Shown: positions 19,437-35,941, counted from the first letter of the stretch. The stretch is DNA of 64,000 nucleotides from Patescibacteria group bacterium (GCA_019744845.1 JAIETW010000001.1:482859-546858), one strand, 5' to 3'. The notes: generated by a model not told the origin, from the letters alone. A program made the numbers and translations.

Positions 19437-19442
19437 ACGTAG

Positions 19443-19515
19443 TCCGCCCGCCAGGGCTCGAACCTGGGACCGTCTCCTTAAAAGGGAGCTGCTCTACCGA
19501 CTGAGCTACGGGCGG
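19443..19515 (-). tRNA. tRNA-Lys (anticodon TTT)
   Basis: Reverse complement folds as a cloverleaf: acceptor CCGCCCG/CGGGCGG, D-arm GCTC-AGTCGGTA-GAGC, anticodon loop CTTTTAA, T-arm CCAGG-TTCGAGC-CCTGG. Confidence 0.85.
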
Positions 19516-19550
19516 CTAAGGGACACCGTACCACCTTGCGACCGTGTTTT

Positions 19551-20468
19551 CTAGTACGCGAACACGTCTACGGTCTTTCCTGCGCTATCCGTGAGACGAA
19601 TGGTCTCATGATTTTCTCGCCACAATTCACGTGCACCACCCAAGAACACACGCCACGTACGCTCAGAGAACTCAGGATCATTCTGATACGCGGCAACACA
19701 GGAGTTGTAATTGAGTCCTTCAAGGAAGGATTCACAACTGTTTGATACATCTGACTGCACGTTCTCAGGTACGGTGCAGCGAGGAATGCTCCATGAGGCA
19801 AGCGCACAATCCTCTTTGTCTGACCGGTCGTACCGCATGAGCACTTCTTCTCGTGCGGTAGGGCAGGCGTCTTCAAGATCAGGTTCAAAGTCCTGGAATT
19901 CATCCAAGTATCCCGTGCAGATACTTTCACGGAAGGAAACGCCGAGAGGAGAGCGTCCGGTGGTGACGACGACTGTCTCTCCAGGGGCAACGACAATAGA
20001 GGAAACGGTATTCACACTTCCTGCACGAGGAATAGATACGCCGCCTGGAATAATCCCACCGACACCAGAGGCCATACTCTCAAGCTTCCACCCGGTCATA
20101 GTGATAGGCGCTTCTGCGCGACGAGACACACTGATACTCAAATACTCTTCGCTTGCCGTGGTCCCACGAGGACCGCTTGGGTTACGGGTGATGGAGACGA
20201 CGCCACGATACTCAGACGTCTCACCATAGGAAGAGAGATCTTCAAGCTGTGCACCAAGATCAAAGAATCCACTGTTGTTTCCAGTGATGCCGCTCGTAAA
20301 CCCAGAACCACGCTTAAGTTCATACGGCTCTGCAAGCTCCCCAGGACCATCAATTGGTTTTACGTACGGGCCTGCAGATGCAAAGGGCTTTGCAGGGCCT
20401 CCTGTCATCACCCAGAGGATGAATACGAAAATAAGAATACCTATGAAGAGAAGCGCATTGTTGCTCAT
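19551..20468 (-). CDS. Hypothetical membrane-anchored or secreted Cys-containing protein
   Basis: N-terminal hydrophobic anchor LLFIGILIFVFILWVMTG. 305 aa. No recognisable catalytic motif. Confidence 0.5.
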   Translation of the reverse strand: MSNNALLFIGILIFVFILWVMTGGPAKPFASAGPYVKPIDGPGELAEPYELKRGSGFTSGITGNNSGFFDLGAQLEDLSSYGETSEYRGVVSITRNPSGPRGTTASEEYLSISVSRRAEAPITMTGWKLESMASGVGGIIPGGVSIPRAGSVNTVSSIVVAPGETVVVTTGRSPLGVSFRESICTGYLDEFQDFEPDLEDACPTAREEVLMRYDRSDKEDCALASWSIPRCTVPENVQSDVSNSCESFLEGLNYNSCVAAYQNDPEFSERTWRVFLGGARELWRENHETIRLTDSAGKTVDVFAY

Positions 20469-20485
20469 GCCTCAATGATACCAGG

Positions 20486-21742
20486 CTAGACTGCGCGCCG
20501 CTGAAGCTCCTCGTGTACTACCTGTGCGTCGCTCCACGGGGTCTTTTTATCCTTCGCTCCCATGATGTAGGGGTCAGTGCCCTTACCAGTGATAAGTACC
20601 ACATCGTCTTCTGCGGCAAGTGAGAGGGCGGTACGGATTGCTTCACGACGGTCCATGACTATCCGTGGCTTCTTCTCCATGCCGTCTGCCATTGCGGCGA
20701 CAATAGCATCTGGATCTTCATCGTACGGATCTTCATTCGTGAGAATAACTTCATGACAGTACTCTTCCGCAATCTTACCCATCTCGGGACGCTTCCAGGT
20801 ATCGCGGCCACCACCAGTGTTTCCAAGTACGCAGATCTTTCGGCGTGCAGGATACGCGTCATAGAGCGCTCGAAGAGAGTCAGGGGTGTGTGCGTAGTCT
20901 ACGACGGCAAGAAAGTTCTGACCCTCATCTATCTGTTCTGCACGACCAGGAATGCGAGAGAGGCTCTGAAGTGCACGCGTGCAAGAAGTCGTGCTTGCAC
21001 CAAGGAACATTGCTGCCTTTACTGCCGCAAGGATATTCATGATGGAGAACACGCCTGGATGCGGGGAGGTGATCGTGGCCCCGTTAAACGTGAAGCGTAC
21101 GGACTCATGTTCCATCACTACGTTCTGCGCATCTCCGTATGAAAAGGGAACCGACTCTTCAACCGGTAATTCCAAGAAACGAATACCGTATGGGTCGTCG
21201 GCATTTGCCACGATTGCGCGAGGACGTTTCTCTGAGCTCGCAAGCTCTTTTCCAATGCGGTACTTCGCGGCGAAGTAATTCTCCATACTTCCATGTGACT
21301 CAATATGTTCACGCGTAAGGTTAGTGAACACCAGTACGTTGAGGGAAGTAAAGAGATGTCGGTACTGGAGTGTGCTTTCGCTCGTGAGCTCCACAACGAC
21401 GTGAGTGCAGCCTGCGTTCTTTGCCTCACGAAAGAATCGTTGCAAAAACCCGCGCCCGGGAAGCGTCATCTTATAGAGATTTGGATGTGATTCGTTTCCT
21501 ATCTTGAAACGGATCGTGCTTGAGAGCGCAACAGTGTGTCCATCCTCTTCAAGAATGGCAGCAATCATTTCTGAGACTGAAGATTTTCCTTTGGTACCGG
21601 TGACACCGATGATGATCATGTCTCGTGCAGGAAATCCGTACCAGAGCGCACTCCCAAATGCCCAGAGATAGTGATAGGGACGAAGAAGTGCCCGGTATAC
21701 GGGACGCGGAAGAATGGTAGAGAGAATATGCCGAAGTCTCAT
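20486..21742 (-). CDS. Mur ligase family protein (MurE-like)
   Basis: ATP-binding P-loop GVTGTKGKSS. DYAHTPDSL motif, as in the MurE DYAHTPDAL. At 418 aa it is shorter than canonical MurE, so exact specificity is uncertain. Confidence 0.6.
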   Translation of the reverse strand: MRLRHILSTILPRPVYRALLRPYHYLWAFGSALWYGFPARDMIIIGVTGTKGKSSVSEMIAAILEEDGHTVALSSTIRFKIGNESHPNLYKMTLPGRGFLQRFFREAKNAGCTHVVVELTSESTLQYRHLFTSLNVLVFTNLTREHIESHGSMENYFAAKYRIGKELASSEKRPRAIVANADDPYGIRFLELPVEESVPFSYGDAQNVVMEHESVRFTFNGATITSPHPGVFSIMNILAAVKAAMFLGASTTSCTRALQSLSRIPGRAEQIDEGQNFLAVVDYAHTPDSLRALYDAYPARRKICVLGNTGGGRDTWKRPEMGKIAEEYCHEVILTNEDPYDEDPDAIVAAMADGMEKKPRIVMDRREAIRTALSLAAEDDVVLITGKGTDPYIMGAKDKKTPWSDAQVVHEELQRRAV

Positions 21743-21744
21743 AG

Positions 21745-22299
21745 TTACCGTGTTGCTGAAGAAAGTGCTGCCTTGAGGCGCGCGTCTTTGCCAGTGATAT
21801 CTCCCGGAACGAGCGCAAGCGCACGACGTGCTTCACGGTCGGTGTATCCAAGTGCTACGAGCGTATCAAATACATCTGAATCCTCTCCTTCATGAGGAGC
21901 AGAAGACACTCCGACTTTCTCTGAAAGCTCCACTACAAGTTTCTCTGCTGCCTTCTTTCCGAGGCCCACAACACGCGTGAGATAGGATATATCACGCTTC
22001 GCGATCGCGCCCTCAAGCGCTTCTCGCGGTGCACGGCGAAGAATGGAGAGGGCAGTCTTTGGCCCTACTCCAGAGACGAGCAAACAGAGCTGGAAGAAGC
22101 GGACGTCAGCGGCATCGGTGAATCCATAGAGCTCTACACCGTCTTGCTTGAAGGCCAGGTGTGTTTGCATGTGGGTTTCCTGTCCGACCATGAGCCCCTC
22201 GGAGGAAATCATGGACACAAAGACCCCCCAGCCCGCCACATCTACGACGGCACCCTCAGGCTCTACCGACACCACGGTTCCTCGTATCTCACGTATCAT
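21745..22299 (-). CDS. ruvA: Holliday junction DNA helicase subunit RuvA
   Basis: MIREIRGTVVSVEPEGAVVDVAGWGVFV OB-fold N-terminus, HhH motifs and C-terminal domain III. 184 aa. Confidence 0.9.
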   Translation of the reverse strand: MIREIRGTVVSVEPEGAVVDVAGWGVFVSMISSEGLMVGQETHMQTHLAFKQDGVELYGFTDAADVRFFQLCLLVSGVGPKTALSILRRAPREALEGAIAKRDISYLTRVVGLGKKAAEKLVVELSEKVGVSSAPHEGEDSDVFDTLVALGYTDREARRALALVPGDITGKDARLKAALSSATR

Positions 22300-22353
22300 T
22301 CACCCCATCCTACCATTTGCGCGAAAAAGGGAGATAGCGTACTATGCCGCGAC

Positions 22354-22611
22354 ATGGCAATCACGAAATCAGCAAAGAAAGCGCACCGCGCCTCCCTTAA
22401 CAAGAAGGTGTTTAACCTTCGTCGCAAGCGTGCACTTAACGATTCCACCAAGGAGGTTAAGAAGCTCATTGCAGAAGGAAAGGGAAAGGATGCGGCTGCG
22501 TCACTTTCCGCTGCCTACAAGGCAATTGATAAGGCAGCAAAGCGCGGAGTGATCAAGAAAAACACCGCCGCTCGTAAGAAGTCCCGCCTCGCAAAGGCAC
22601 TCGCAAAATAA
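22354..22611 (+). CDS. rpsT: 30S ribosomal protein S20
   Basis: MAITKSAKKAHRASLNKKVFNLRRKRAL...AARKKSRLAKALAK. The internal ATG at 22354 gives the canonical 85-aa S20. The longer ORF-track version overlaps ruvA and is rejected. Confidence 0.9.
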   Translation: MAITKSAKKAHRASLNKKVFNLRRKRALNDSTKEVKKLIAEGKGKDAAASLSAAYKAIDKAAKRGVIKKNTAARKKSRLAKALAK

Positions 22612-22614
22612 GAA

Positions 22615-22637
22615 GCCGCCCCGAGGGGCGGTTTTTT
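22615..22637 (+). terminator. Rho-independent terminator of rpsT
   Basis: CCGCCCC-GA-GGGGCGG hairpin followed by TTTTTT. Confidence 0.7.
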
Positions 22638-22641
22638 CATG

Positions 22642-22713
22642 TGCTCTCGGCAGGAATCGAACCTGCATTTCCTCCTTCGGAGGGAGATGTCCTATCCATT
22701 GAACGACGAGAGC
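22642..22713 (-). tRNA. tRNA-Arg (anticodon CCG)
   Basis: Reverse complement GCTCTCGTCGTTCAATGGATAGGACATCTCCCTCCGAAGGAGGAAATGCAGGTTCGATTCCTGCCGAGAGCA. 7-bp acceptor, D-arm, anticodon loop CTCCGAA, T-arm GCAGG-TTCGATT-CCTGC. Confidence 0.85.
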
Positions 22714-22853
22714 GTTCCGGGGACTATAGCACTATTTACAGTGGTGCTCTCAAGCAAGTAAGGGCACTTTTCTGGAGATTGTTTGGAAGTCCTATTTAGT
22801 ATCAATTCAAACTTGCTTATTATATGGCTTGGGAATTGAACATTTTTTAACCC

Positions 22854-22893
22854 CTTATAAATAATTGACGTATTTATAAGGATGTTATACATT
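22854..22893 (+). promoter_or_regulatory. Promoter with operator: perfect 10-bp inverted repeat overlapping the -35 hexamer
   Basis: CTTATAAATA (22854-22863), 7-bp spacer ATTGACG, TATTTATAAG (22871-22880). TTGACG (22865-22870) is a near-consensus -35. TATACA/TACATT lies 15-17 bp downstream as -10. The transcript would start at or just before ATG 22900 (leaderless). Confidence 0.45.
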
Positions 22894-22899
22894 TACAAT

Positions 22900-23130
22900 A
22901 TGAGTAAACCTAAAGATCAGGAAAATTCACGGGACAGATTTAAACGTCTTGCCACACAGCGCACCAACAACGTTTTGCAGAAATTAAAAGTTTTAGGCAA
23001 CTGCTCAAATCGCAGTGTGTATGAATACGATGAGGAAGATATCTCAAAAATATTCTCCGAAATTGAAAAGCGTGTAAGAGAAACCAAGGCCAAGTTTCAC
23101 TTTTCCAAAAGGAGTGTTTTTAAGCTCTAA
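22900..23130 (+). CDS. Islet gene 1: small basic helical protein (76-82 aa), hypothetical
   Basis: MSKPKDQENSRDRFKRLATQRTNNVLQKLKVLGN.... Lys/Arg-rich, no TM segment. The ORF track starts at 22882; ATG 22900 fits the predicted promoter better. First gene of the operon, 3 nt before gene 2. Confidence 0.45.
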   Translation: MSKPKDQENSRDRFKRLATQRTNNVLQKLKVLGNCSNRSVYEYDEEDISKIFSEIEKRVRETKAKFHFSKRSVFKL

Positions 23131-23133
23131 ACT

Positions 23134-23787
23134 ATGACCGACCATAAAAAATCTATTCTTGCCCTTAAGCCCTTTCCGGCAAAATCTTACGCCGAAGTAG
23201 ATCTTGATCGGCTAGCGGTCTATGCACTTTATACGTTAGACCAAAAACACCTGCCCTTGTATTTCGAATATGCAGCAGTGGCCCTTTTTAGATTGTTCCC
23301 TAAGAAGTTCTCCATGGCTAACTTTAGTCGTTACCCTGATACTTATAGGATCAACAACTCACTGAGACGGCTTGTGGGTGGGCTGGGAACAAAAAGTGAA
23401 AAAGCGGGGTGGGTATCAGGAAGCGTTGAGCATGGGTTCCGAATGACCGATGTAGGGATAGAGATTGCCAAACAGATGGATTTATTACTAAAAGCTCCTG
23501 CCGGAAATAAGCCTGTTAAGCCTCTAGTTTCAAAAACCAGAGGAAGATTTTCTAGCGATGACGTGAAAGAAATTAGAGCATCAGGTGCGTTTGATAAGTG
23601 GCAGACAGGGAAAGAAATTAATGGCCATGAGTTCCTTGCTTTTCTTAAGGCGCCGCCCTATACCCCGAAACACCTCTTGGCAGCCCACCTAACTCGTCTT
23701 AAGGATTCTGCACTAACTGCCAAAGACGGTGTAGTAATAAAGTTTCTTGCTCACATGGAACAAAAATTTAAGGACCTCATAAACTAA
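23134..23787 (+). CDS. Islet gene 2: hypothetical protein (217 aa)
   Basis: Tightly coupled on both sides (3-nt and 2-nt gaps). No recognisable motif. AT-rich codon usage matches the islet. Confidence 0.5.
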   Translation: MTDHKKSILALKPFPAKSYAEVDLDRLAVYALYTLDQKHLPLYFEYAAVALFRLFPKKFSMANFSRYPDTYRINNSLRRLVGGLGTKSEKAGWVSGSVEHGFRMTDVGIEIAKQMDLLLKAPAGNKPVKPLVSKTRGRFSSDDVKEIRASGAFDKWQTGKEINGHEFLAFLKAPPYTPKHLLAAHLTRLKDSALTAKDGVVIKFLAHMEQKFKDLIN

Positions 23788-23789
23788 CT

Positions 23790-26609
23790 ATGTCTGAAAT
23801 AGCTGTCCAAATTGCATCCCGTTATATCCGCAGGAAACAGTCGGATGCAGTCGGTAAGAACCTACTAAAAACCTTAACTGAACCGATAACTAACTCTGAC
23901 GATAGCTATAGAAGAATTGCAGAGTCCGAAAAGGATTTCGCTAGCGCAGTCTTTCCAATAACAATATTTGTAGATAAGCCGGGGCGCCTAATTCGCATTA
24001 TTGATGAAGCTGAAGGGATGACAGAGAAGGAGCTTGAAACAAAGTTTAAAGAGTACGGTGCCGCCAAAAGTGGTGCTTACGAAGGCTTTAGTTCAAGGGG
24101 AATATTTGGGCAAGGTCTTTCGGACGTGCTTTTCTACCATCGTGAAGGAAAAATCAAGACAATCAAAAATGAAGAAGCTACGGTATGTAGCTTTTATTGG
24201 AAAAAAGAAAAGCAATATATTCAAGTTGAAAAGCAAACAAAAGATATAAATAGAATTGCAAGAGAGTGGTCGTTACCGTGTAAGCACGGAACGGTTATTG
24301 AGTTTGTATTAGACAACACAACACTACACGATTACGAAAATCTCGTGAAAAAATTGAGTGTTTTTTATATGTTACGCCTCATCAATAATAGTGACAGGCG
24401 TACCATCAAGCTTGTATATAAAGAGCGGAGCGCTACCAAAAAAGCTCAGATTAAGTATGAGTTTCCCAAGGGAGACCTGGTAGACTCAAGGCAGTTTCCA
24501 TTTAATTTTGAGGGGCACGATCCGGTGACAGTTGACGTGCAGTTATACAAATCTGACGTCTCTCTTAAAACAGTAGGTGAAGAAAGGGAAAATGGCTTAC
24601 TTGTATTTGACAATAAAGAAGCTGTATATGATCAAACGTTTTTTGGGCTAGACGATCTACCAGGTGCGGACAAGTTTTTTGGCACAATGAAACTTACAGG
24701 TGCTCGGGAGATTATTTTGGAAAAAATTAACCATCCGAAACATCCAGAAGAGATTTTGTCGGATACGCGTGATGGTTTCAATAAGCAGCACGAATTCTAT
24801 AAACAGCTTCAACTGATTGTTAAAGACTGGCTCTATCCAATTTTAAATGAAGAAAGAAGGCGAAAAACGAATGACGGGATTTCTGAGTCAACGATTGAAA
24901 AACATCAAAAGGCTTTTGAGGAATTAAACAAACTTTACAAGCAACTTACAGGAGACGAGACAAGTGGAACAATAAAAGCAAAGAAAAAACTGCGCCCAAT
25001 CGGTGGAATCCAGTTTGCAAGAAACCACGTCTCAATAACGGTTGGGAAAAGATACGGACTGCAATTACTGATTGATACTAACGTTGTAAAGATTGGCACT
25101 AAGGTTAAGTTAAAGGCGGCTAAGGGGGTAGTTGGGTTTTCCCCCGGAGAATTTGTTGTAGAGGAAGCACGTCCTGACGAAAACGGAGTTGCTGTCAAAA
25201 CTATAATTTTAACTGGACCTAAGGCACGTACGGCTGATACTCTCCATGCGAATGCAGGCAAGCACTCTGCTTCCGTTGTTGTAGGGGTAATTTCGGAGGA
25301 AGTGGCTTATCCAGAGGACGGGATGGTTTTTAGTCCTGAGTACGTCAGAACTATATCTCACAAAGATAGTGTAGCGACTTTGTATATTGATTTAACCAAA
25401 ATCAAGATAGGAACAAAAATACGCTTTGTAAGCACTAACGACACTATTCAACTAAAAAGAACAACAATTTCTGTTCCACGCAGAATGAGAACAGCAACCG
25501 GAACAAAGTTGGCAAAAATTCAAGTTGAGTTTCAAGGAAATAAAAATGACGAAACAGGAATTATTGAAGCTTCGTTCGGCAAATACTTAACTCAATGCAG
25601 GGTTGATATTAAAGAAAAAAAGAGGATCCCCCCAGGAGGATCTATAGGAAAGTTTAAGGACTGGGATTTTGATGACGGAGTCCCCCCTCATTTGCAAACT
25701 ACCTATGATCCAATGGAAGGGAGTCCCACTCAGGGATATATATTGATAAATACTTCCCACCCGATCAATCGGCACTACTTTGGTGAAAGCCCAACGAAAA
25801 AAGAGGCGCTTAAGTCACATAAGGCGCAACTCTACCTTGCGGAGCTAATACTTAATGAGTCGCTAGGAGGAATGATAAATGAAGCGTATCAAAAAGGAGT
25901 AATCCCTACAAACTACGGCGCTGGCATAGACATTCCTGTCTACGTTGCACAAAAAAAATATGAACTCGGCGAGCTAATTTATGATTTTTTTGTTGAACCG
26001 GAACCAACGGGTCTTGAATCCAGAAGAACTGAAAAACTCCAGGAGGCAAAACAGAAACACGATATGTCTGAAGAAGAACTCCTAGAAAATATGGACGATA
26101 GACCAAGAACAATGGTTGAGATGTACTTTGGTTTAGGTGAACAGAGAAAGCACACCCTTGAAGAAATTGCTTCAAGATTTGGGGTAACAAGGGAAAGAAT
26201 TAGACAGATCATCAATAAAGCATTGGCTCCGAGTTTTGGGGAGAAGTCCGATCCGTACGTGACTTCAGAGGATGAGGGAGTAGATACAAGAGATTATCTT
26301 GCTGAGGAAGAAAAACGCCTAATGCTTGAGGCGGAAAAAATAGTGGAAGTTAGCGCAAGGATGTACGGCGTGAAAGCATCTGACTTGTACAGTAAGACAA
26401 GAGAGGCAAATATTGTTGTACCGCGGCACATAGCTATGTATTTATTACGAACAAAAATGGGCCTTTCCTTTCCATCTATTGGGAAACAGTTTGATCGTGA
26501 CCACACTACAATTATGCATGCGTGTAACAAGATCTCTCTAATGATTCAAAAAAACCAAAAGATAAACAGAAGAGTGGATAAGATACTCAGTCTTGCTGAA
26601 GTTAAATAA
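23790..26609 (+). CDS. Islet gene 3: 939-aa chimeric protein with GHKL (Hsp90/MORC-like) ATPase N-domain, sigma-70 region-4 HTH and C-terminal DnaA domain IV
   Basis: Bergerat-fold motifs EPITNSDDS (N box), IIDEAEGMTEKEL (G1), AAKSG and GIFGQGLSDVLF (G2), cf. Hsp90 DTGIGMTK..IAKSG..GQFGVGFYS. Residues ~765-815 MVEMYFGLGEQRKHTLEEIASRFGVTRERIRQIINKAL are a textbook sigma-70 region 4.1/4.2. Residues ~842-939 (YGVKASDLYSKTREANIVVPRHIAMYLLRTKMGLSFPSIGKQFDRDHTTIMHACNKI) align at ~45% identity to domain IV of this genome's own DnaA (YGIDEESIYEKTRRREVVRPRQVIMYLLREDFSVSYPTIGSKLGGRDHTTVIHSCEKV). Confidence 0.7.
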   Translation: MSEIAVQIASRYIRRKQSDAVGKNLLKTLTEPITNSDDSYRRIAESEKDFASAVFPITIFVDKPGRLIRIIDEAEGMTEKELETKFKEYGAAKSGAYEGFSSRGIFGQGLSDVLFYHREGKIKTIKNEEATVCSFYWKKEKQYIQVEKQTKDINRIAREWSLPCKHGTVIEFVLDNTTLHDYENLVKKLSVFYMLRLINNSDRRTIKLVYKERSATKKAQIKYEFPKGDLVDSRQFPFNFEGHDPVTVDVQLYKSDVSLKTVGEERENGLLVFDNKEAVYDQTFFGLDDLPGADKFFGTMKLTGAREIILEKINHPKHPEEILSDTRDGFNKQHEFYKQLQLIVKDWLYPILNEERRRKTNDGISESTIEKHQKAFEELNKLYKQLTGDETSGTIKAKKKLRPIGGIQFARNHVSITVGKRYGLQLLIDTNVVKIGTKVKLKAAKGVVGFSPGEFVVEEARPDENGVAVKTIILTGPKARTADTLHANAGKHSASVVVGVISEEVAYPEDGMVFSPEYVRTISHKDSVATLYIDLTKIKIGTKIRFVSTNDTIQLKRTTISVPRRMRTATGTKLAKIQVEFQGNKNDETGIIEASFGKYLTQCRVDIKEKKRIPPGGSIGKFKDWDFDDGVPPHLQTTYDPMEGSPTQGYILINTSHPINRHYFGESPTKKEALKSHKAQLYLAELILNESLGGMINEAYQKGVIPTNYGAGIDIPVYVAQKKYELGELIYDFFVEPEPTGLESRRTEKLQEAKQKHDMSEEELLENMDDRPRTMVEMYFGLGEQRKHTLEEIASRFGVTRERIRQIINKALAPSFGEKSDPYVTSEDEGVDTRDYLAEEEKRLMLEAEKIVEVSARMYGVKASDLYSKTREANIVVPRHIAMYLLRTKMGLSFPSIGKQFDRDHTTIMHACNKISLMIQKNQKINRRVDKILSLAEVK

Positions 26610-26712
26610 ACTACCCCAACTGTTCGGCAGATAGAGTGAACTAATATCACGCTTTGCCCGGTTGCCTGTGTGGCCATTGAACTGTTCTATTGCCTCCCCA
26701 GGAGGTCTCTGG

Positions 26713-26784
26713 TGCTCTCGGTAGGAATCGAACCTACATTACCAGCTCCGCAAGCTAGCGTCCTATCCATTGAACGACGAGAGC
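26713..26784 (-). tRNA. tRNA-Arg (anticodon GCG)
   Basis: Reverse complement GCTCTCGTCGTTCAATGGATAGGACGCTAGCTTGCGGAGCTGGTAATGTAGGTTCGATTCCTACCGAGAGCA. Its 5' half is identical to the tRNA-Arg(CCG) at 22642-22713. Anticodon loop TTGCGGA. Confidence 0.8.
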
Positions 26785-26825
26785 GTCGCCTGTGACTCTA
26801 ACGTTCTTCCTCCGCATTCGCAAGC

Positions 26826-27308
26826 CTACAGCCGCAAATACTCAAAGAAACGATCAAGGAAGGAGTGCTCGTGATTACCCTCAGGTACGTGCTGAGCGAT
26901 GTAGTCATAGATCTCAAGGGGGTCGTGTCCAATGACAGGAATGAGAATGTGAGGCGCAAGAATATGTCGGGTCCTGATAGAGAGGGCAGGAGGGAGCTTT
27001 GGATCTAGATACTCAAGGGCAGAGAAGTGCATCATGTCCTCGTAGTAGTAGAGGTTTTCATCAATCGCGAGTCCATCTTCCATCACGCGGAAGCGGTGCG
27101 TGTGAGGCGGCTTTGCAGCCTGAAGTGCAAGCGCACCTGCACCTGCCGCAATCACGAGAGCCAAAAGAATATTGTTGAAGAGAATGGCGGCAATCACTGC
27201 AGCGGTTGCAAGAATACCGAGCGCCCAAAACCAATCCGCGCCTTTATCGCCGAAGTCGTGTTGTGAGCCTTCCCATTCAAAGATGGTCTGTGCCATAGCT
27301 ATCGCCAT
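26826..27308 (-). CDS. Hypothetical membrane protein
   Basis: 160 aa with two central hydrophobic helices (WFWALGILATAAVIAAILFNNILLALVIAAGAGALAL). Confidence 0.45.
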   Translation of the reverse strand: MAIAMAQTIFEWEGSQHDFGDKGADWFWALGILATAAVIAAILFNNILLALVIAAGAGALALQAAKPPHTHRFRVMEDGLAIDENLYYYEDMMHFSALEYLDPKLPPALSIRTRHILAPHILIPVIGHDPLEIYDYIAQHVPEGNHEHSFLDRFFEYLRL

Positions 27309-27347
27309 AATACCACCCGTATACCAGGGGTAGAGGAAGACTGAGGA

Positions 27348-28880
27348 CTACTCGTACTCAATTGTGGCTGGTGGTTTCTGTGTGACGTCGTAGAGGATAC
27401 GATTTACGCCACGCACCTTTCCAACAATGGCGCTTGAGATCTTTTCAAGGAGTTCTGGTGGCATTTTGTGCCAGTCAGCGCTCATGCCATCCACTGAATC
27501 TACGGCGCGAAGGGCGAGTACGTACTCATACGTGCGCGCATCTCCCATCACTCCCACTACTTTAAGAGGGAAGAGTGCAGCAAAGGCCTGCCAGATCTTC
27601 TCGTACTCACCGGACTTCTTAAGTTCCTCTATGTACACCGCATCTGCGTCACGAAGGATTTCAAGACGCTCAGGAGTGACTTCACCCACAATGCGGATGG
27701 CGAGGCCTGGGCCTGGGAATGGGTGGCGCCATAGAAGTTCCTTTGGAAGATCCAAGGTTGCGCCCACGCGTCGCACCTCATCTTTGTAGAGATCTTTAAT
27801 AGGCTCAAGCACCTTAAGACCAAAACGCTCAGGAAGCGTAAGGTTGTGATGACTCTTTATCTTTGATGCCTGCTTGCCGGTTGCTGCAGATTCAATGCGG
27901 TCGGGGTAGATAGTGCCCTGTGCAAGATACTTAATAGGGAAGTCCGCGAGCTCTTCCTCAATCGCTTTCTCAAATACTTCAATAAACGTGTGCCCGATGA
28001 TCTTTCGTTTCTGTTCAGGGTCAGTAATACCAGAAAGTTTTGAAAGGAAGATGCGAGACGCATCAATCACATGCAGCCCCTTGAAACCGTGCTTCTTTAA
28101 ATAAGTAGACACTTGCTCCACCTCTCCCTTACGAAGAAGGCCCGTGTCTACAAACACGGCGTGCAATTGGTTTCCAATGGCGCGGTGTATGAGTGTTGCG
28201 GCGACGAGAGAGTCTACGCCACCGGAAATACCGACAAGCACATGTGCATCGCCGACCTCTTCTTTGATGTCCGCGATAATCTTTTCTCCGACTGCTTTGA
28301 TCTTCCAATCTTTCTTTGCGTTCACAATTTCAAAAAGGAAGTTCTTCAATACTTCCGTTCCGTGTGCGGTGTGCGTCACTTCGGGATGGAACTGGATACC
28401 GTAGAACTTTCGCTTTGCATCCATAAAGCCCGCGTACTTACAGGAAGGGGTGGAGGCAGTAACGGTAAATCCTTTCGGAAGCTTGGTTGCCTGGTCGCCA
28501 TGTGAGAACCACACAACTTCTTTTGCAGAGAGTCCCTTGAGCACTCCCTTCTTTGCGACCACTTTAATGGTTTCTTTTCCAAACTCGCGCTCCTTTCCTG
28601 GGGTGACTTTGCCACCAAGGAGATGCGCCATCGCCTGGTGTCCGTAACAGATACCAAGCACGGGAACCCCAAGCGTGAACACTCCCTTGTCAGGAAGTGG
28701 TGCTCCGTCATCAAGCACGGACATTGGTCCCCCAGAAAGAATAATTCCGGCAGGAGACAGGGCTTTAATTTCCTCTAGTGAGGCGGTTCCAGGAAGAATT
28801 TCTGCGCGGACTCCAAGGTCACGGACGCGGCGAGCAATAAGGTGGGCGAACTGGCTCCCAAAGTTCAGTACGACAATCAT
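27348..28880 (-). CDS. guaA: GMP synthase (glutamine-hydrolysing)
   Basis: N-terminal class-I glutamine amidotransferase (catalytic C in GICYGHQ). ATP pyrophosphatase PP-loop SGGVDSLV. C-terminal dimerisation domain ending ...PPATIEYE. Confidence 0.95.
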   Translation of the reverse strand: MIVVLNFGSQFAHLIARRVRDLGVRAEILPGTASLEEIKALSPAGIILSGGPMSVLDDGAPLPDKGVFTLGVPVLGICYGHQAMAHLLGGKVTPGKEREFGKETIKVVAKKGVLKGLSAKEVVWFSHGDQATKLPKGFTVTASTPSCKYAGFMDAKRKFYGIQFHPEVTHTAHGTEVLKNFLFEIVNAKKDWKIKAVGEKIIADIKEEVGDAHVLVGISGGVDSLVAATLIHRAIGNQLHAVFVDTGLLRKGEVEQVSTYLKKHGFKGLHVIDASRIFLSKLSGITDPEQKRKIIGHTFIEVFEKAIEEELADFPIKYLAQGTIYPDRIESAATGKQASKIKSHHNLTLPERFGLKVLEPIKDLYKDEVRRVGATLDLPKELLWRHPFPGPGLAIRIVGEVTPERLEILRDADAVYIEELKKSGEYEKIWQAFAALFPLKVVGVMGDARTYEYVLALRAVDSVDGMSADWHKMPPELLEKISSAIVGKVRGVNRILYDVTQKPPATIEYE

Positions 28881-28905
28881 GACCTATCCTATCATGCAGA
28901 TTCTC

Positions 28906-29883
28906 TCAATTAAAATCCGCGAGAAACCGCTCCACGGCCGGCGCAATGCGTTCCTTACAGGCGATGAATAGAGAGGAGCGAGGATCATTTGAGGTGCCGT
29001 ATGCCCACATAAGAAGTACAAACATCTCGCACACGCGTATCCTCATTCGGAAATCGTCCTGCGCTTCTTTAGACGTGATTCCCTGTTCGGAAAAATAGGT
29101 AGTGAGTGAGTACGGACTGCAGTATGTAAAGTCCCATGCGGGATCTGCAAGAAGCGCCCACTCCCAGTCTATGAGTCCAGAAAGCTTTCCATCGCTCATC
29201 AATACGTTAGAAGGATTTATATAGTCCGTGCACACAAGTGACGAGGGTCCTGTATAGGTGATGAGAGGGAAGAGACGATCAAAGAGCTGTGCAAAAAGTG
29301 GACGCATATCGTCCTCAGGATTGGTGACCAGTGACTTTTGTGCGATTGCGTCTGCCCACAGTGGTGCTTCAGTCATGAGAAACTCTTTCCACGACTGGTA
29401 ACGAGCGTGGATGCGGCCGTCCGCAAATGACTCTATGACACCAAAGCCTTCGGTAGGCACCTGCGCATGTATGGCTGCAAGTGCTGCTTCTACTTGAGGC
29501 CCAACAGTCTCCACCGGCTCCTTCCACTCCATGTACGTTGTGTTTCCTCGGAGTTCTATAGAGCCTGCGGCGTGTCCAGGAAGTTTGTGCTGAATAGTGA
29601 CTGCGTGATCTGAGAGGTCTACGCAGGACAACACTTCAGCAAGTGGGAGGTGAGGAAATGCTCGTGTTGCATCAGACACAATCTTCAACTTGTCGGGCAT
29701 TCCAAACGCGCGCTGCTCTGGCGTGATCTTTTTTATATGCACGACCAGTTCACCAACACTGGTGGTGAGTATGTACACTTCGCTCATGATGCCCTGCGTT
29801 CCGTAGAGGTGAAGAGAAGCAGGGTCGTATGTGATACCGAGGCAGTCTAATTCAGAAAGAGCCGTCTGAATATGAGCATTCAT
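28906..29883 (-). CDS. Aminoglycoside/choline-kinase-like phosphotransferase family protein
   Basis: APH-fold signature LIDWEWALLADPAWDF (Brenner/DFG-like region) and the overall protein-kinase-like pattern. Confidence 0.6.
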   Translation of the reverse strand: MNAHIQTALSELDCLGITYDPASLHLYGTQGIMSEVYILTTSVGELVVHIKKITPEQRAFGMPDKLKIVSDATRAFPHLPLAEVLSCVDLSDHAVTIQHKLPGHAAGSIELRGNTTYMEWKEPVETVGPQVEAALAAIHAQVPTEGFGVIESFADGRIHARYQSWKEFLMTEAPLWADAIAQKSLVTNPEDDMRPLFAQLFDRLFPLITYTGPSSLVCTDYINPSNVLMSDGKLSGLIDWEWALLADPAWDFTYCSPYSLTTYFSEQGITSKEAQDDFRMRIRVCEMFVLLMWAYGTSNDPRSSLFIACKERIAPAVERFLADFN

Positions 29884-29914
29884 ACGGGTAAGTATTTCAC
29901 AGTTGAACGTTTAG

Positions 29915-29999
29915 CGGAGGAGGTGAGATTCGAACTCACGGTCCCTTGCGAGACTCTTGTTTTCAAGACAAGTGCGATAGACCACTCTGCCACTCCTCC
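29915..29999 (-). tRNA. tRNA-Ser (anticodon TGA)
   Basis: Reverse complement GGAGGAGTGGCAGAGTGGTCTATCGCACTTGTCTTGAAAACAAGAGTCTCGCAAGGGACCGTGAGTTCGAATCTCACCTCCTCCG. Long variable arm. Anticodon loop CTTGAAA. Confidence 0.85.
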
Positions 30000-30006
30000 T
30001 GGGCTA

Positions 30007-30321
30007 CTACGACCCCTGTTGAGGGGCCCCAGTGTCCTTACTTGTACCAAAGGTAAAGAGAGAAGGGAAGGTGCGCGCCTCTTTGTCCTTACGGAACCAG
30101 AGAAGGTACACGATCTCTAGAATACCCACGGTGTTTACAAGAAGAAGGACGATAAACCAGATCTTCTGACCGTTTTTAGCGGCGTGCCAGAGTGCAAGAC
30201 CCTTCCAGACGAGAGTCCACAATACAGCGACGATCATAAGACCGGCAAACATCCCGAGCCCCGCACCCATCATTCCCACATTTCCCATAAATGGACTATA
30301 CATATATATACAGGATAGCAT
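30007..30321 (-). CDS. Small hypothetical membrane protein
   Basis: Gly/Met-rich N-terminus and two TM helices. ~100 aa. Start uncertain. Confidence 0.4.
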   Translation of the reverse strand: MLSCIYMYSPFMGNVGMMGAGLGMFAGLMIVAVLWTLVWKGLALWHAAKNGQKIWFIVLLLVNTVGILEIVYLLWFRKDKEARTFPSLFTFGTSKDTGAPQQGS

Positions 30322-30327
30322 GTACCA

Positions 30328-30717
30328 ATGAAGTATCTAGGAATTGATTACGGCACTAAGAAAGTAGGACTCGCCCTCTCGGACGAGAACGGGACCATGG
30401 GCTTCCCGCATGGCGTGGTACCAAACGATGCGAATCTTAAGGCGTACCTCCTTAGTCTTATAGAGAAGGAGGGAGTGGGTGCCATTGTCGTCGGGGAATC
30501 TAAGAACTATCAAGGAGGAGACAATCCGGTCGCCGCACATGCACGCGCTTTTGCAGAAAAGCTTGGGGAAGTTGCGAGTGTTCCAATCCACTTCTACTCA
30601 GAACTTCTTACGAGCGAGGAAGCTCGCCGCATGCCGGATGGAAGTCGCGTATCTGAGGGAGGTGTTGACGCATCGGCTGCTGCCCTTATTCTTACTCATT
30701 ATTTTGAACGACCATGA
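30328..30717 (+). CDS. ruvX: YqgF/RuvX Holliday-junction-resolvase-like putative pre-16S rRNA nuclease
   Basis: MKYLGIDYGTKKVGLALSD N-terminus with the catalytic Asp in a GxDxG context. 129 aa RNase-H-like fold. Confidence 0.85.
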   Translation: MKYLGIDYGTKKVGLALSDENGTMGFPHGVVPNDANLKAYLLSLIEKEGVGAIVVGESKNYQGGDNPVAAHARAFAEKLGEVASVPIHFYSELLTSEEARRMPDGSRVSEGGVDASAAALILTHYFERP

Positions 30718-31043
30718 TTACGATAGATGATCTTGCAAAGATAGAGATACGAGTAGGCACGGTAGTGTCTGCAGAGCGTGTGCCCGAGACCGACAAGCTC
30801 ATTCGCCTCATGGTGGAGTTCGGGGAAGACACAGGACCACGCCAGATTGTGTCTGGCATCGCTGCATACATAGAGAGTCCTGAGTGGCTCGTCGGGAAGC
30901 AACTTTCTTTTGTGACGAACCTAGAACCACGTACGATTAAGGGGCTTGAGAGTAACGGCATGCTCTTTGCCATTGGTGGAGGAGATTCATTTGCGTTTCT
31001 TACTCCCCACCGTGACGTGCCACCAGGAACGAGTGCGCACTAA
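30714..31043 (+). CDS. tRNA-binding domain protein (EMAP/Trbp111/CsaA-like OB fold)
   Basis: IRVGTVVSAERVPETDKLIRLMVEFGED...QIVSGI...VGKQLSFVTNLEPRTIKGLESNGMLFA matches the MetRS C-terminal / Trbp111 tRNA-binding domain pattern. The metG in this window lacks that domain. Confidence 0.75.
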   Translation: MITIDDLAKIEIRVGTVVSAERVPETDKLIRLMVEFGEDTGPRQIVSGIAAYIESPEWLVGKQLSFVTNLEPRTIKGLESNGMLFAIGGGDSFAFLTPHRDVPPGTSAH

Positions 31044-31064
31044 AGCCTTGGTATACTCCAAGAG

Positions 31065-32150
31065 ATGAAAGGAACGTTCGCACGGTTCGCACGAGTGGAG
31101 TTTGCTCCTCCACCGTATTTGTCGCTTCCGACTGCGGGCGTAGATATCTCCACGAGCGGTATCAAGATTGCATTTTTGAAAGAACACGGGCATGGTCTTG
31201 AACTTGCGTCCTACGGTGAAGCACCACTCGCACTCGGCGCTATTGATGGAGGAGAGATTGCTGATCGCGCCGCAGTGGTAGAAGGACTCAAGATGCTTGC
31301 GAAGAAGCACGGCATCCGCTTTGCGAACATTGCACTTCCTGAATCTCGTGGGTATCTCTTTGAGGCGGGAGTAGAAGGAACGACTCCAAACGACTGGCGC
31401 ACCTCTATAGAACAGCGCATTGATGAATATGTCCCACTCCCTCCTGCAGAAGTGATGTTTGACCTCGTGCCTATAAACGAAAAGAAGGAAGACAAGATAC
31501 AGGTTGCCGGAATCGGATACGCACGTCGTGTCGTAGAAGAGTCGGTATCTGCACTAGAAGAGGCGGGGATTACCGTACGCGCAGTAGAGAGTGAGAACTT
31601 TGCACTTCCTCGCGCACTTCTTCCTCACGGAGATACGGAGACCGTGCTCGTGATTGATCTTGGGAAAACCACCACGAAGCTTCTCGTGGTGACTGAGCGT
31701 GTACCTCGTCTTGCGACGACGCTTGATATTGGTGGACACGCACTCACCCTTGCAGTCGTCAAGCACTTCGGGGTGTCAGAAGAAGAAGCACGTCGCATTA
31801 AGGCAGAGAAGGGAATTGTCTCTGGCACCGAGAATGATGAGTACATTGCTGCCATGCTCTCCACTGTGTCGGTGATCCGCGAAGAGATCGGACGCCGTCT
31901 TGAATACTGGCAAAGCCATGCTGCAGAAGACGGGCATCAGCCAGTGACGCGCGCAGTCTTGGTAGGAGGGAACGCAACAATACGCGGACTCCCTGAGTAT
32001 CTTGAATCAGGACTCAAGATACCGGTGGCGCTTGGAGATGTGTTTGTAAACCTCGCATCTCGCGACGATTGGTTGCCACCCGTTGATTACATGCAGTCAC
32101 TTGCGTACGGCACCGCGATAGGTCTTGCACTTCGTGAATACGTCCCATAG
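31065..32150 (+). CDS. pilM: Type IV pilus assembly protein PilM
   Basis: Actin-like ATPase-fold protein of 361 aa. Followed by PilN- and PilO-like genes. GIDISTSGIKIAFL N-terminal pattern. Confidence 0.75.
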   Translation: MKGTFARFARVEFAPPPYLSLPTAGVDISTSGIKIAFLKEHGHGLELASYGEAPLALGAIDGGEIADRAAVVEGLKMLAKKHGIRFANIALPESRGYLFEAGVEGTTPNDWRTSIEQRIDEYVPLPPAEVMFDLVPINEKKEDKIQVAGIGYARRVVEESVSALEEAGITVRAVESENFALPRALLPHGDTETVLVIDLGKTTTKLLVVTERVPRLATTLDIGGHALTLAVVKHFGVSEEEARRIKAEKGIVSGTENDEYIAAMLSTVSVIREEIGRRLEYWQSHAAEDGHQPVTRAVLVGGNATIRGLPEYLESGLKIPVALGDVFVNLASRDDWLPPVDYMQSLAYGTAIGLALREYVP

Positions 32151-32152
32151 CT

Positions 32153-32722
32153 ATGCACTCCTCCCTTATTAACCTCCTTTCCTCCGAACGCATTCGTGCG
32201 TTTCAGCAGGGATACTTCTATCGCCTTGGTACGGTGATCGCTCTTTCGCTTGCCTTCATGCTCATGCTTCACGCCATGATGCTTGCGCCTGCGTACTTCA
32301 CGCTTGCTGAAGCGAAGGCGAATGAAACGACTCTTCTTCAGAGTGTGAAGGAGCGTCTCTCTTCTGCAGGAGATCAGGAAATTACGGAACGCCTTGCGGC
32401 ACTCGGAAAGCAAACGGAACACCTTGTTCGTCTTGCAGCGGTGCCATCGGCCACCGCTACTATGCGGGAAGTACTTCTGCTTCCACGAAGCGGCATCACG
32501 CTTACCGGGCTTTCCTTCACTCCACCGGCAGGGAAGACCGGAGGACAGCTCCGGCTGACTGGCACTGCCGTATCTCGTGATGCACTCCGAAGCTACCAAA
32601 GCACTCTTGGTACTCTTCCGACGGTTACGAATGTTGACTTGCCAATCAGTGCATTTGCGAAGGAGAGTGATATTCCATTTACGATTACACTCACCGGGAG
32701 TTTTAGCCCCGTCTCGCCATGA
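32153..32722 (+). CDS. pilN: PilN-like pilus assembly protein
   Basis: Single N-terminal TM helix followed by a coiled-coil/periplasmic domain. Position after pilM. Confidence 0.5.
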   Translation: MHSSLINLLSSERIRAFQQGYFYRLGTVIALSLAFMLMLHAMMLAPAYFTLAEAKANETTLLQSVKERLSSAGDQEITERLAALGKQTEHLVRLAAVPSATATMREVLLLPRSGITLTGLSFTPPAGKTGGQLRLTGTAVSRDALRSYQSTLGTLPTVTNVDLPISAFAKESDIPFTITLTGSFSPVSP

Positions 32723-33294
32723 CCAAGACCACTCTCATTCACCTGGGGCTTTCTATTCTCCTTCTCATCGGAGTAGGAGTGGCGTATGTATTTTGGTACA
32801 CGAGCGTCGTCTCTCTTCGCACTGAAGTCGCCACTCTCCGGACGGAAACGGAGACACTTTCCGCGTCTGCACTTCAAATCTCTGCTGCGCGATCTGCACT
32901 CGCAAAACTAACGGAGGACGAGACGTACTTTGGTTCTTACTTTGTCTCTACCTCAACCGTCGTTTCTTACCTTGAAGCACTTGAGAGTGCAGGAGATGAG
33001 TTTGGTGCCTTTGTAGAAGTAGTGTCAGTCACTCCGGAAGGAAAAACACGACTGGCGGTCTCTTGGAAGGCAGAAGGATCATTTGTGCAGGTGATGCGCA
33101 CGGCCGGTGTAATTGAGCACGGCCCCTACGATGCAGTGATGAAGAGTCTCACTATTGATACCAATGTGTCGGCAGAGGGAGTGTGGACGGTGTCTGGAGT
33201 CGTCTCAGTCGGGATGCGACCAGACGAAGGAACGAAGGAGCAGTCGGGCGCTCCTGCCGCTCCGTCGGATAATGTGAACGACCTTCTTATATGA
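32719..33294 (+). CDS. pilO: PilO-like pilus assembly protein
   Basis: N-terminal TM helix plus a coiled-coil segment (LRTEVATLRTETETLSAS). 4-nt overlap with pilN. Confidence 0.45.
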   Translation: MTKTTLIHLGLSILLLIGVGVAYVFWYTSVVSLRTEVATLRTETETLSASALQISAARSALAKLTEDETYFGSYFVSTSTVVSYLEALESAGDEFGAFVEVVSVTPEGKTRLAVSWKAEGSFVQVMRTAGVIEHGPYDAVMKSLTIDTNVSAEGVWTVSGVVSVGMRPDEGTKEQSGAPAAPSDNVNDLLI

Positions 33295-33584
33295 AACTCA
33301 AACTCCCATTTAAGGTACCAAGCTTGAAGTACGGCGATCGTATTCACGCCGTGCGTGACTGGCTCGCCCTTCTCTCCGCGCTCCTTATCTTCCTTGTGGC
33401 AAGCGTTGCATGGAATGCGTGGTTCTTTGTGAACGTCACTGACGAGAGTGCCTTCATCACTCCAGGGCAGAGTGCTCCTGCGCCAATCTTGAGTGCGCTT
33501 CCTGCTGCGCGTGAAGTGCTTGAAAACAGAGCAGGGGAAGCAGATCGTTACAGAATCTTCTATCAGTTCGTTGACCCGTCGTAG
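33291..33584 (+). CDS. Small hypothetical membrane protein (pilMNO operon tail)
   Basis: 97 aa, one TM helix, 4-nt overlap with the upstream gene. Confidence 0.35.
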   Translation: MKLKLPFKVPSLKYGDRIHAVRDWLALLSALLIFLVASVAWNAWFFVNVTDESAFITPGQSAPAPILSALPAAREVLENRAGEADRYRIFYQFVDPS

Positions 33585-33605
33585 GAGGACGAGTACTGTT
33601 ACTAA

Positions 33606-33677
33606 GCCCCCATAGCTTAATGGATAAAGCTGCGGACTTCTAAGCCGTCGATCTAGGTTCGATTCCTGGTGGGGGCA
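33606..33677 (+). tRNA. tRNA-Arg (anticodon TCT)
   Basis: GCCCCCATAGCTTAATGGATAAAGCTGCGGACTTCTAAGCCGTCGATCTAGGTTCGATTCCTGGTGGGGGCA. Acceptor GCCCCCA/TGGGGGC. Anticodon loop CTTCTAA. One A-G mismatch closes the anticodon stem. Confidence 0.75.
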
Positions 33678-33686
33678 CAGCTGGCG

Positions 33687-34232
33687 TTATGCTCGGTGCC
33701 ACAGTGCGAGCTCTTCTGCAGTAAGGACGGTCTCCGTAATGAGGAGCTCTTCCATAATTGGTGCGACTGCAATCATCGCATCAACGAGTCCAAGTCGCGT
33801 GCGCTCACTTCCGCTTACCTCAAAACGTACTGGCCATGTAGTTACAATTTCTGTAATGATTTGACGATCTCCAGCGGTAAGACGAGTGCCGTGCTCGTAT
33901 GTCATTAAAATATCAAGGAGATGTTCTGACATCACAAATGGATTAATCTCTGCATGTGCTTCTTTGAGCTGGTGGAGTATTGGTGTGATGCTTTCGCGCC
34001 GTGCCCATGCATCAAGAATACGAGTGCGCACACCCAGGTACTCTCCGTATGGTCGTCCATCTGCGTCTTCTCCCTCTGCCCAGTGCACAAGACGCTCTAT
34101 GTCATGCGCGGTAAGTTCTTCGGTCGGCGGCCATGGCTGCTCGGTGGATCCGGCAAGCGTACTCGCCGCCGCGGCAGCAGCGAGTGCTTCGTTCACATTT
34201 CTGCGAGTGTACCTCTTTTCATCTTCCGGCAT
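33687..34232 (-). CDS. Hypothetical protein (181 aa)
   Basis: The ORF-track ORF 33687..34343 runs through tRNA-Val. The first ATG downstream of the tRNA (MPEDEKRY...) is at 34232. No known motif. Confidence 0.4.
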   Translation of the reverse strand: MPEDEKRYTRRNVNEALAAAAAASTLAGSTEQPWPPTEELTAHDIERLVHWAEGEDADGRPYGEYLGVRTRILDAWARRESITPILHQLKEAHAEINPFVMSEHLLDILMTYEHGTRLTAGDRQIITEIVTTWPVRFEVSGSERTRLGLVDAMIAVAPIMEELLITETVLTAEELALWHRA

Positions 34233-34249
34233 AGATGAGTTTTCGGTGG

Positions 34250-34322
34250 TGGGCGCTAGAGGACTCGAACCTCTGACCATCCCGGTGTAAACGGGGTGCT
34301 CTACCAACTGAGCTAAGCGCCC
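34250..34322 (-). tRNA. tRNA-Val (anticodon TAC)
   Basis: Reverse complement GGGCGCTTAGCTCAGTTGGTAGAGCACCCCGTTTACACCGGGATGGTCAGAGGTTCGAGTCCTCTAGCGCCCACCA. Anticodon loop TTTACAC. CCA is encoded. Confidence 0.85.
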
Positions 34323-34378
34323 GGTCCTGAGACGATAGCGCACCTCTCGCAGATTTCAAAGCGTGGTAGGTTCTATAT

Positions 34379-34648: not shown

Positions 34649-34651
34649 GTC

Positions 34652-35935: not shown

Positions 35936-35941
35936 CGAAAA

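Follow-up and report, generated by a model that had tools for sequence, protein, structure and literature searches.

We analysed a 64-kb window of DNA from Patescibacteria group bacterium (the whole stretch, to whose positions all coordinates below refer), in which an AT-rich islet between two tRNA-Arg genes carries a cassette of three genes, here called g1, g2 and g3. The third gene encodes an ATPase with an unusual DNA-binding tail. As the initial annotation had stated, the islet is bracketed by minus-strand tRNA-Arg(CCG) and tRNA-Arg(GCG), which were identified by ARAGORN and by Rfam (63.1 and 61.5 bits, respectively); the former is without an encoded CCA. The reported position beside rpsT (22354–22611) and guaA (27348–28880) was also confirmed, and ruvA is a further neighbour. 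The features of the locus are as follows, with related genomes and loci denoted by L and a number:

22641–22713, minus strand: tRNA-Arg(CCG), the left border, kept in the related genomes L008 and L009
22714–22747, minus strand: 34-nt leader or promoter region of tRNA-Arg(CCG), by alignment with L008 the last core sequence before the variable slot
22742–22751, plus strand: distal copy of a 10-nt direct repeat, TGGTGCTCTC, att-like and straddling the homology breakpoint
22748–26711: variable slot, that is, the AT-rich islet of 3,964 bp, defined by its breakpoints against L008 and L009 and by composition
22853–22893, plus strand: promoter and candidate operator, from the sequence and a promoter scan
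22900–23130, plus strand: g1, a basic helical protein of 76 aa, as in a 76-aa gene call in L001 and in the alignment
23134–23787, plus strand: g2, 217 aa; a winged helix at the N terminus is joined by a basic, disordered linker to a helical bundle at the C terminus
23790–26609, plus strand: g3, 939 aa, annotated only as ‘hypothetical’ in ‘Patescibacteria group bacterium’
23790–24779, plus strand: g3 residues 1–330, GHKL (Bergerat) ATPase and S5-type transducer, similar to MORC and SMCHD1
25008–25754, plus strand: g3 residues ~407–655, immunoglobulin-like (Ig-like) beta-sandwich domains
26070–26237, plus strand: g3 residues 761–816, sigma-70 region 4
26295–26603, plus strand: g3 residues 836–938, DnaA domain IV (the helix-turn-helix that binds the DnaA box)
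26710–26719, plus strand: proximal copy of the 10-nt repeat, which forms the 3′ end of tRNA-Arg(GCG) with its CCA
26710–26784, minus strand: tRNA-Arg(GCG), the right border, at whose 3′ end the slot starts

The slot contains three plus-strand open reading frames (ORFs; 22882, or more likely 22900, to 23130; 23134–23787; and 23790–26609) separated by gaps of 3 and 2 nt. ORF calls and a promoter scan thus agree with the earlier description of three packed, co-directional genes behind one promoter. Any other ORFs of the slot run antisense within g3 and are no longer than 108 aa, and an Rfam scan found nothing in the slot beyond the two tRNAs. A domain search detected no recombinase domain in the g1, g2 and g3 proteins, and phmmer searches with XerD and three serine recombinases as queries gave no match in any frame of the 64-kb window. 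The same queries did detect recombinases in other loci, which served as a positive control. The islet therefore carries no integrase or recombinase that these searches could find, in line with what had been noted at first.

The islet is foreign in composition. The G+C content (GC) of 500-nt windows was 0.38–0.43 across 22501–26500, compared with 0.50–0.56 in the flanks. For the slot as a whole (22751–26709), GC was 0.407 versus 0.518 in the rest of the window (z = −10.9 against 210 windows of the same size, the lowest of which had a GC of 0.483), and the L1 distance of its tetranucleotide frequencies was 0.429 versus 0.147 ± 0.017 (z = +16). GC at third codon positions (GC3) was 0.37–0.42 in the cassette genes and 0.51–0.56 in six flanking genes. 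The GC drop and the foreignness proposed from sampled values thus lie far beyond the variance of the window. A second low-GC stretch, 62001–64000 (0.38–0.46), is the lowest region of the window outside the islet. Its two ORFs (62486–63964, 492 aa; and 62038–62478, 146 aa) lie directly after rpsF and ssb and have no Pfam match, and the stretch may be another islet that extends past the window end.

We then compared the same slot in two syntenic relatives, L008 and L009, which were obtained from a GuaA scan of GTDB species genomes. L008 is the closer of the two (98% amino acid identity in GuaA, and 78–89% nucleotide identity of the flanks over 21 kb); GuaA of L009 is 88% identical. The two genomes have in common the order guaA, a small hypothetical gene, tRNA-Arg(GCG), the slot, tRNA-Arg(CCG), rpsT, ruvA, a Mur ligase gene and tRNA-Lys. 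The slot of L008 measures 905–939 bp and holds one unrelated ORF of 245 aa, and that of L009 measures 1,654 bp and holds a TrmB-like regulator and an ORF of 249 aa. Homology of the window to both genomes breaks off at 26712, where the acceptor stem of tRNA-Arg(GCG) has its 3′ end, and begins again at a point 34 nt upstream of the tRNA-Arg(CCG) gene (the blastn breakpoint is position 22747 of the window, equivalent to 13075 of L008). Thus, the gap between the two tRNA-Arg genes is a cargo-exchange slot whose content differs among related genomes, and the three genes are absent from it in L008 and L009 rather than ancestral to the position. We found no empty site, as all three genomes examined have occupied slots, so that, strictly, the ‘insertion’ should be called a variable slot in which cargo has been replaced. 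With its foreign composition and with other cargo at the same position in relatives, the islet bears out the proposed horizontal acquisition at this tRNA locus. Of the two refuting conditions named at the outset, a composition within normal variance and the presence of the same genes here in all relatives, neither applied.

At the borders, the 10-mer TGGTGCTCTC has two copies in the 64 kb, one at each border, when 0.13 would be expected. The distal copy reads GAGAGCACCA on the minus strand, which is the acceptor 3′ strand, discriminator and CCA of tRNA-Arg(GCG). This resemblance suggests an att scar. By contrast, the identical 5′ halves of the two tRNAs, initially listed as a sign of insertion, have another explanation. 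The identity is real (the first 26 nt are identical, with 83% identity over 75 nt), but the same two paralogous isoacceptors occur in L008 and L009, so the similarity of the border tRNAs reflects isoacceptor paralogy.

Some further observations concern the tRNA genes of this region. Eight of them lie within 17 kb (19442–36474; Lys, Arg (three), Ser, Val, Leu and His) amid housekeeping genes, in the same order in L008 and L009. When positions 34595–34651 of the window are compared with 4935–5824 of L008, L008 has approximately 890 bp of extra DNA beside tRNA-Val(TAC), a second small variable slot that adjoins a tRNA gene in the same region. Bacterial tRNA-Arg for CGU and CGC usually has the anticodon ACG. 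Here the arginine tRNA for these codons has the anticodon GCG, as it does in four related genomes (L005, L008, L009 and L029). The CCA end of tRNA-Arg(GCG) is encoded in the copy of the window but not in that of L008.

The N-terminal part of g3 is a GHKL ATPase in both fold and motifs. The AlphaFold2 model of g3 had a predicted local distance difference test score (pLDDT) of 85, and the closest folds to its ATPase were SMCHD1, MORC3 and MORC2, at a sequence identity of only 12–16%. GHKL ATP-binding motifs I–IV are present, as is an S5-fold transducer after the GHKL domain, and residues E31, N35, D37, D72, G76, G107, G109, G167 and T168 were invariant or nearly so in 70 sequences. A profile of g3 matched the Hsp90 N-domain (E = 1e-5); the Pfam model HATPase_c_3 scored 21.6 bits, under its cut-off of 25. 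Two long helices (residues 335–387) precede the Ig-like domains, which are without conserved catalytic-type residues, and a helical region (658–756) follows them. Because all conserved polar positions fall within residues 1–330, no nuclease site is apparent in g3. Two related interpretations were set aside. A topoisomerase VI-like arrangement (GHKL B subunit plus winged-helix A subunit) was rejected as g2 has no Toprim domain and the best folds were MORC, SMCHD1 and Hsp90. A GHKL–Shedu system was dropped as there is no DUF4263 nuclease (PMC12137116).

The C-terminal part of g3 combines two DNA-binding domains. Sigma-70 region 4 was matched by Pfam Sigma70_r4 (E = 8.6e-12) and by the NCBIfam RpoD and MzaA C-terminal models, and DnaA domain IV by Pfam Bac_DnaA_C (residues 849–915). 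We refer to g3 proteins with this tail as the long form and to those without it as the short form. The recognition helix of g3, VTRERIRQI, matches that of primary sigma factors, and in 32 long-form proteins (I/V)TRER(V/I)RQI was at least 90% conserved, with conservation also of the DnaA motif R..PR..LSFPSIG..DHTT. The residues conserved in the two tail domains are the ones by which such domains touch −35 hexamers and DnaA boxes. Nevertheless, g3 is not a sigma factor: it has region 4 only, and region 2 was not detected. Nor is it a DnaA replication initiator, as it has domain IV only, without the AAA+ domain III and domains I and II, and the genuine DnaA is encoded at 5490–6986.

The genuine dnaA (plus strand, with the true start probably near 5641) is followed within the window by dnaN (7198–8298, plus strand). 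DnaA boxes with one mismatch cluster at 6929–7111, and GC has a minimum of 0.438 at 7001–7500. As dnaA and dnaN, the cluster of boxes and the GC minimum all lie there, we place a putative oriC at about 6.9–7.2 kb, approximately 15.6 kb from the islet.

The two smaller proteins belong to no family that we could recognize. g1 is the best conserved component of the cassette in the alignment. It had no match in Pfam, NCBIfam, PADLOC or PHROG, and a profile search of the PDB gave only chance-level matches; g1-like proteins nonetheless form 4,321 homologous clusters at 90% identity. We propose that g1 may be a controller-like regulator or adaptor. For g2, the structure model had a pLDDT of 83, and searches of PADLOC, NCBIfam, Pfam and PHROGs gave no match. 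In g3, these four collections matched nothing beyond the GHKL and helix-turn-helix portions.

A promoter-like sequence, TTGACG-17-TACATT, lies upstream of g1 at 22865–22893 (−35 TTGACG, 22865–22870; −10 TACATT, 22888–22893). As the −10 element ends 6 nt before the ATG of g1 (22900), the g1 transcript is probably leaderless. The −35 element is flanked by a perfect 11-nt inverted repeat, CCTTATAAATA (22853–22863)–N7–TATTTATAAGG (22871–22881), and a half-site, AAGGAT, is present at 22878–22883. Similar to this arrangement, the long-form clade has an AAGGrT half-site 13 nt after the −35 TTGACx. The full palindrome AAGGrTr-N3–7-yAyCCTT over the −10 element was found in 7 of 23 upstream regions, whereas 300 shuffles yielded none; 16 of the 23 regions had one half-site or more, with 2.4 expected. 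Six related loci (L005, L119, L137, L152, L161 and L167) also carry a DnaA box (TTATCCACA, perfect or with one mismatch) at −83 to −92 before g1, just upstream of the −35 element, in fixed position and orientation. This box is absent upstream of the cassette promoter in the window, and the window as a whole has no excess of DnaA boxes (14 found, 10.7 expected).

We next examined how the cassette is distributed, using 80 more loci from exact-protein look-ups and a metagenome scan together with a tblastn survey of gene order. Approximately 59 full-length g3 homologues share the architecture of g3, and all are from Patescibacteria. The order g1–g2–g3 was present in all 22 long-form loci, at unrelated chromosomal positions; thus, the three genes form a conserved unit that recurs across unrelated loci of Patescibacteria. 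Similar to the islet, long-form cassettes were AT-richer than their own flanks in 12 of 15 loci. A tRNA gene lay within 1.5 kb in only five of the 22 long-form loci, a different tRNA each time and at about the chance rate, and we therefore rejected a general preference of the cassette for tRNA genes.

Most relatives of g3 are without the tail. An exhaustive profile search gave 641 g3-like clusters at E ≤ 1e-30, nearly all of them tail-less proteins of ~720–800 aa, and these short forms retain g2 and often g1. An N6/N4 DNA methyltransferase gene was found within 2.5 kb in 25 of 36 complete short-form loci, mostly convergent and directly after g3, and in none of 14 long-form loci over the same distance. 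A split variant at L183 (6001–11587; also L184) consists of g1, a g2 homologue, a distant GHKL/Ig protein of 704 aa and a separate protein of 366–382 aa in which DnaA domain IV precedes sigma region 4, next to a convergent C5 DNA methylase and Vsr. As L183 has both, the idea of strict mutual exclusion between the helix-turn-helix tail and a methylase is weakened. Because the pair of sigma region 4 and DnaA domain IV is found fused or split, with or without a methylase, it is a recurrent partner of these ATPases. At L179 (6001–10066; also L180), a g1 homologue heads a different cassette with a convergent N6/N4 methyltransferase; the large protein there (754–837 aa) has no significant similarity to g3 and is either unrelated or very distant.

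The neighbourhoods of the cassette are rich in defence and mobility genes. Large serine recombinases were present within ~4 kb in five long-form loci (L098, L107, L109, L110 and L176) and one short-form locus (L088/L089), which suggests that an element with a serine recombinase is the usual vehicle of the cassette. Together with the 10-nt border repeat, the recombinases near the five other long-form loci fit the earlier suggestion of an element that is degraded or mobilized in trans. The cassette of the window was probably brought in by an element with a recombinase gene, or else by recombination within the conserved flanks. Among the genes next to long-form cassettes are those for a ThsB-like TIR protein, Shedu SduA_C, SMODS with SLATT, Eco57I and a type I S subunit, and further neighbours are Panacea and Gp49/HTH toxin–antitoxin genes and DndB-like proteins. 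In L176, SMODS with AGS_C and SLATT_4 (12803–14708) directly follow the long-form cassette, and in L181 (9716–10885; L181/L182) a ThsB-like TIR protein and an 8xMP membrane protein do so. Among 50,697 phage and 72,556 plasmid records, only the helix-turn-helix parts matched, and no homologue of the g3 core was present. Viral contigs gave four weak matches to g3 (23–26% identity over the first 346–424 residues).

We found no description of this cassette in the literature. The nearest described kind is that of the MORC/paraMORC GHKL ATPases, which have been tied to restriction–modification (R-M) operons (Iyer, Abhiman and Aravind 2008, PMC2292703); the assignment rests on GHKL and S5 features and not on family signatures. 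Similar to the prokaryotic MORC/paraMORC proteins (PMC2292703), g3 has an N-terminal GHKL domain and S5 transducer with intact ATP motifs, its distribution is sporadic and laterally mobile, members of its family are linked to DNA methylases (N6/N4, or C5 with Vsr in the split variant), and an ATP-driven manipulation of DNA is proposed. By contrast, the cassette has no superfamily II helicase and no recognizable nuclease (restriction endonuclease-fold, HNH or TIR) within or adjoining it. It has g1 and g2 as obligatory partners of no known family and an Ig-like middle region, and in this branch it has the fused tail but no methylase. Of the partners typical of R-M operons, neither a methylase nor a nuclease nor a superfamily II helicase is present in the islet, and no helicase or nuclease is conserved among its relatives.

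Other known systems are more distant. Unlike eukaryotic MORC2, MORC3 and SMCHD1, g3 has no CW, coiled-coil or hinge domain, and it is encoded in a bacterial operon with other partners. The cassette is not a classical R-M system, as the islet has neither a methyltransferase nor an endonuclease and g3 has no conserved nuclease-type residues. The MZA system is a defence operon that likewise contains both a sigma-70-like protein and a MutL-type GHKL ATPase. MzaA was the only defence model in PADLOC and NCBIfam to match g3, over residues 755–812 only, and no other Mza model of these collections matched g1, g2 or g3. Similar to the controller (C) proteins of R-M systems, g1 is a small first gene, probably leaderless, with a palindromic candidate operator over its own promoter, which is an analogy only; unlike them, it has no detectable Xre-type helix-turn-helix or match to a known fold. 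The islet itself resembles tRNA-linked islands in that it abuts a tRNA 3′ end, has at the far border a short repeat of that end that may be an att scar, is foreign in composition and varies in content, but differs from them in having no integrase, in being only 4 kb and one operon, and in having a second tRNA gene as its border.

These data lead us to read the cassette as a horizontally acquired, autoregulated, R-M-related conflict (defence) module with a MORC-like, ATP-driven DNA clamp, a reading to which we assign a probability of about one half. The view that the cargo is a candidate accessory system, as initially annotated, stands in that the cassette is foreign, conserved and, at other loci, accompanied by defence genes; the mechanism is our proposal and has four steps. 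First, the single sigma-70-type promoter within inverted repeats may be repressed by a protein of the cassette, most plausibly g1 if R-M controller proteins are a guide. Second, as its fold and intact ATP motifs suggest, g3 would dimerize on ATP and close around DNA as a clamp. Third, the target DNA would be chosen by the winged helix of g2 together with sigma region 4 and DnaA domain IV of g3. As both domains keep their base-contacting residues, the tail is predicted to recognize −35-like hexamers, which define promoters, and DnaA boxes, which define replication origins. Fourth, and most speculatively, clamping might keep an incoming replicon from being replicated or expressed, with no recognizable nuclease involved. 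In short forms the methyltransferase presumably marks self DNA, whereas in this branch, with no methyltransferase nearby, the fused DNA-binding pair would take part in target choice. Tentatively, and with much less confidence than in the module as a whole, we raise the possibility of an exclusion system that needs neither a nuclease nor methylation, in which the MORC-like clamp uses captured copies of the host sigma region 4 and DnaA domain IV to locate and silence the promoters and origins of invaders.

Several observations weigh against a clamp-based defence module. No nuclease or other effector is detectable in the cassette, and no known defence model matches it apart from the PADLOC match to MzaA, which is due to the sigma region 4 stretch. 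The −10 palindrome of the window is degenerate in its right half, and a second inverted repeat flanks the −35 element instead. The border repeat is only 10 nt, its inner 6 nt (GCACCA) also occur in L008, and it is suggestive only. Several neighbours of the cassette are plain housekeeping genes. The chief difficulty is that our model gives no account of how the host chromosome, with its putative oriC so close, would escape a clamp predicted to recognize DnaA boxes and −35 elements.

One alternative is that the tail is a bait. The cassette would again be a defence system, but its tail, instead of reading DNA, would mimic the primary sigma factor and DnaA, both frequent targets of phages, and the GHKL ATPase would be activated once a phage takeover protein had bound the tail. 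The fused domains do copy hub proteins of the host: the tail shares 37% identity with domain IV of the host’s own DnaA, and the recognition helix matches that of primary sigma factors. AsiA of phage T4 binds sigma-70 region 4, and the occurrence of the domain pair fused or split and in either order suits a functional module better than a DNA reader that depends on spacing. However, the conserved residues are exactly those that would contact bases, which fits DNA binding better, and the fixed DnaA box in six related loci together with the strong, conserved −35 element suggests that the tail has sites on DNA. We also know of no phage partner. We consider a bait unlikely, although slightly more probable than the alternatives that follow.

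The same DNA-reading tail could instead serve the host, if the module were a domesticated chromosome factor, kept for its benefit to the bacterium, that clamps oriC or promoters, for example, so that replication and transcription slow down when the bacterium starves or becomes detached from its host cell. Eukaryotic MORC proteins and SMCHD1 compact and silence chromatin, and the structural match of g3 to them counts in favour of such a role, as do the predicted reading of host DnaA boxes and −35 elements, the ~15.6 kb between the islet and dnaA, dnaN and the putative oriC, and the location of the cassette in the complete genome CP066687, ~41–44 kb from where the record ends. This proximity to the origin comes from two genomes only, however, with the record start of CP066687 taken as given. 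The cassette is distributed patchily and is missing from the closest relative of this genome; its foreign composition, its defence and mobility companions and its methyltransferase-linked relatives also argue against a resident chromosomal role, which we regard as improbable.

We rank lower still, and doubt, the possibility that the cassette is the remnant of a mobile replicon, namely a replication, maintenance or addiction module of an integrated plasmid-like or phage-like element rather than an immune module, with g3 as an origin-binding initiator or partition factor and g2 as its DNA adaptor. DnaA domain IV is typical of initiators, and PHROG replication-initiation families match the tail; composition is foreign, serine recombinases lie near the five long-form loci named above, and a DnaB_C helicase is found near the cassette in L176. 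Against this, core homologues are missing from the phage and plasmid records and amount to the four weak matches on viral contigs, no AAA+ initiator domain is present, most family members are tail-less and sit beside DNA methyltransferases, and the cassette stands alone among housekeeping genes in the window and in many other loci. Finally, that these are old resident genes with low GC owing to protein composition or expression level would agree with the lack of an integrase, long flanking repeats or an empty site, but it is refuted by L008 and L009, which hold other genes in the slot, and is further contradicted by the GC3 difference and by the same cassette at unrelated loci elsewhere, leaving it next to no probability.

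Genomic islands are already known in Patescibacteria (PMC12455944), and the islet itself is ordinary; its cargo is the interesting part. At the level of the locus, small slots beside tRNA genes, without an integrase, swap cargo among related Patescibacteria. At the level of the cassette, an abundant, uncharacterized family matters as Patescibacteria have tiny genomes and few recognized defence systems. Its architecture is unusual in joining a MORC-type ATPase to domains that read promoters and origins, and it provides a handle on the role of prokaryotic MORC-like proteins, which has been open since 2008. If the exclusion system raised tentatively above is real, bacteria would have their own version of MORC/SMCHD1 silencing, and the cassette would belong to a large, so far undescribed group of Patescibacteria cassettes headed by g1. 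Should the module act without a nuclease, it would connect bacterial conflict systems with the silencing carried out by MORC and SMCHD1 in eukaryotes.

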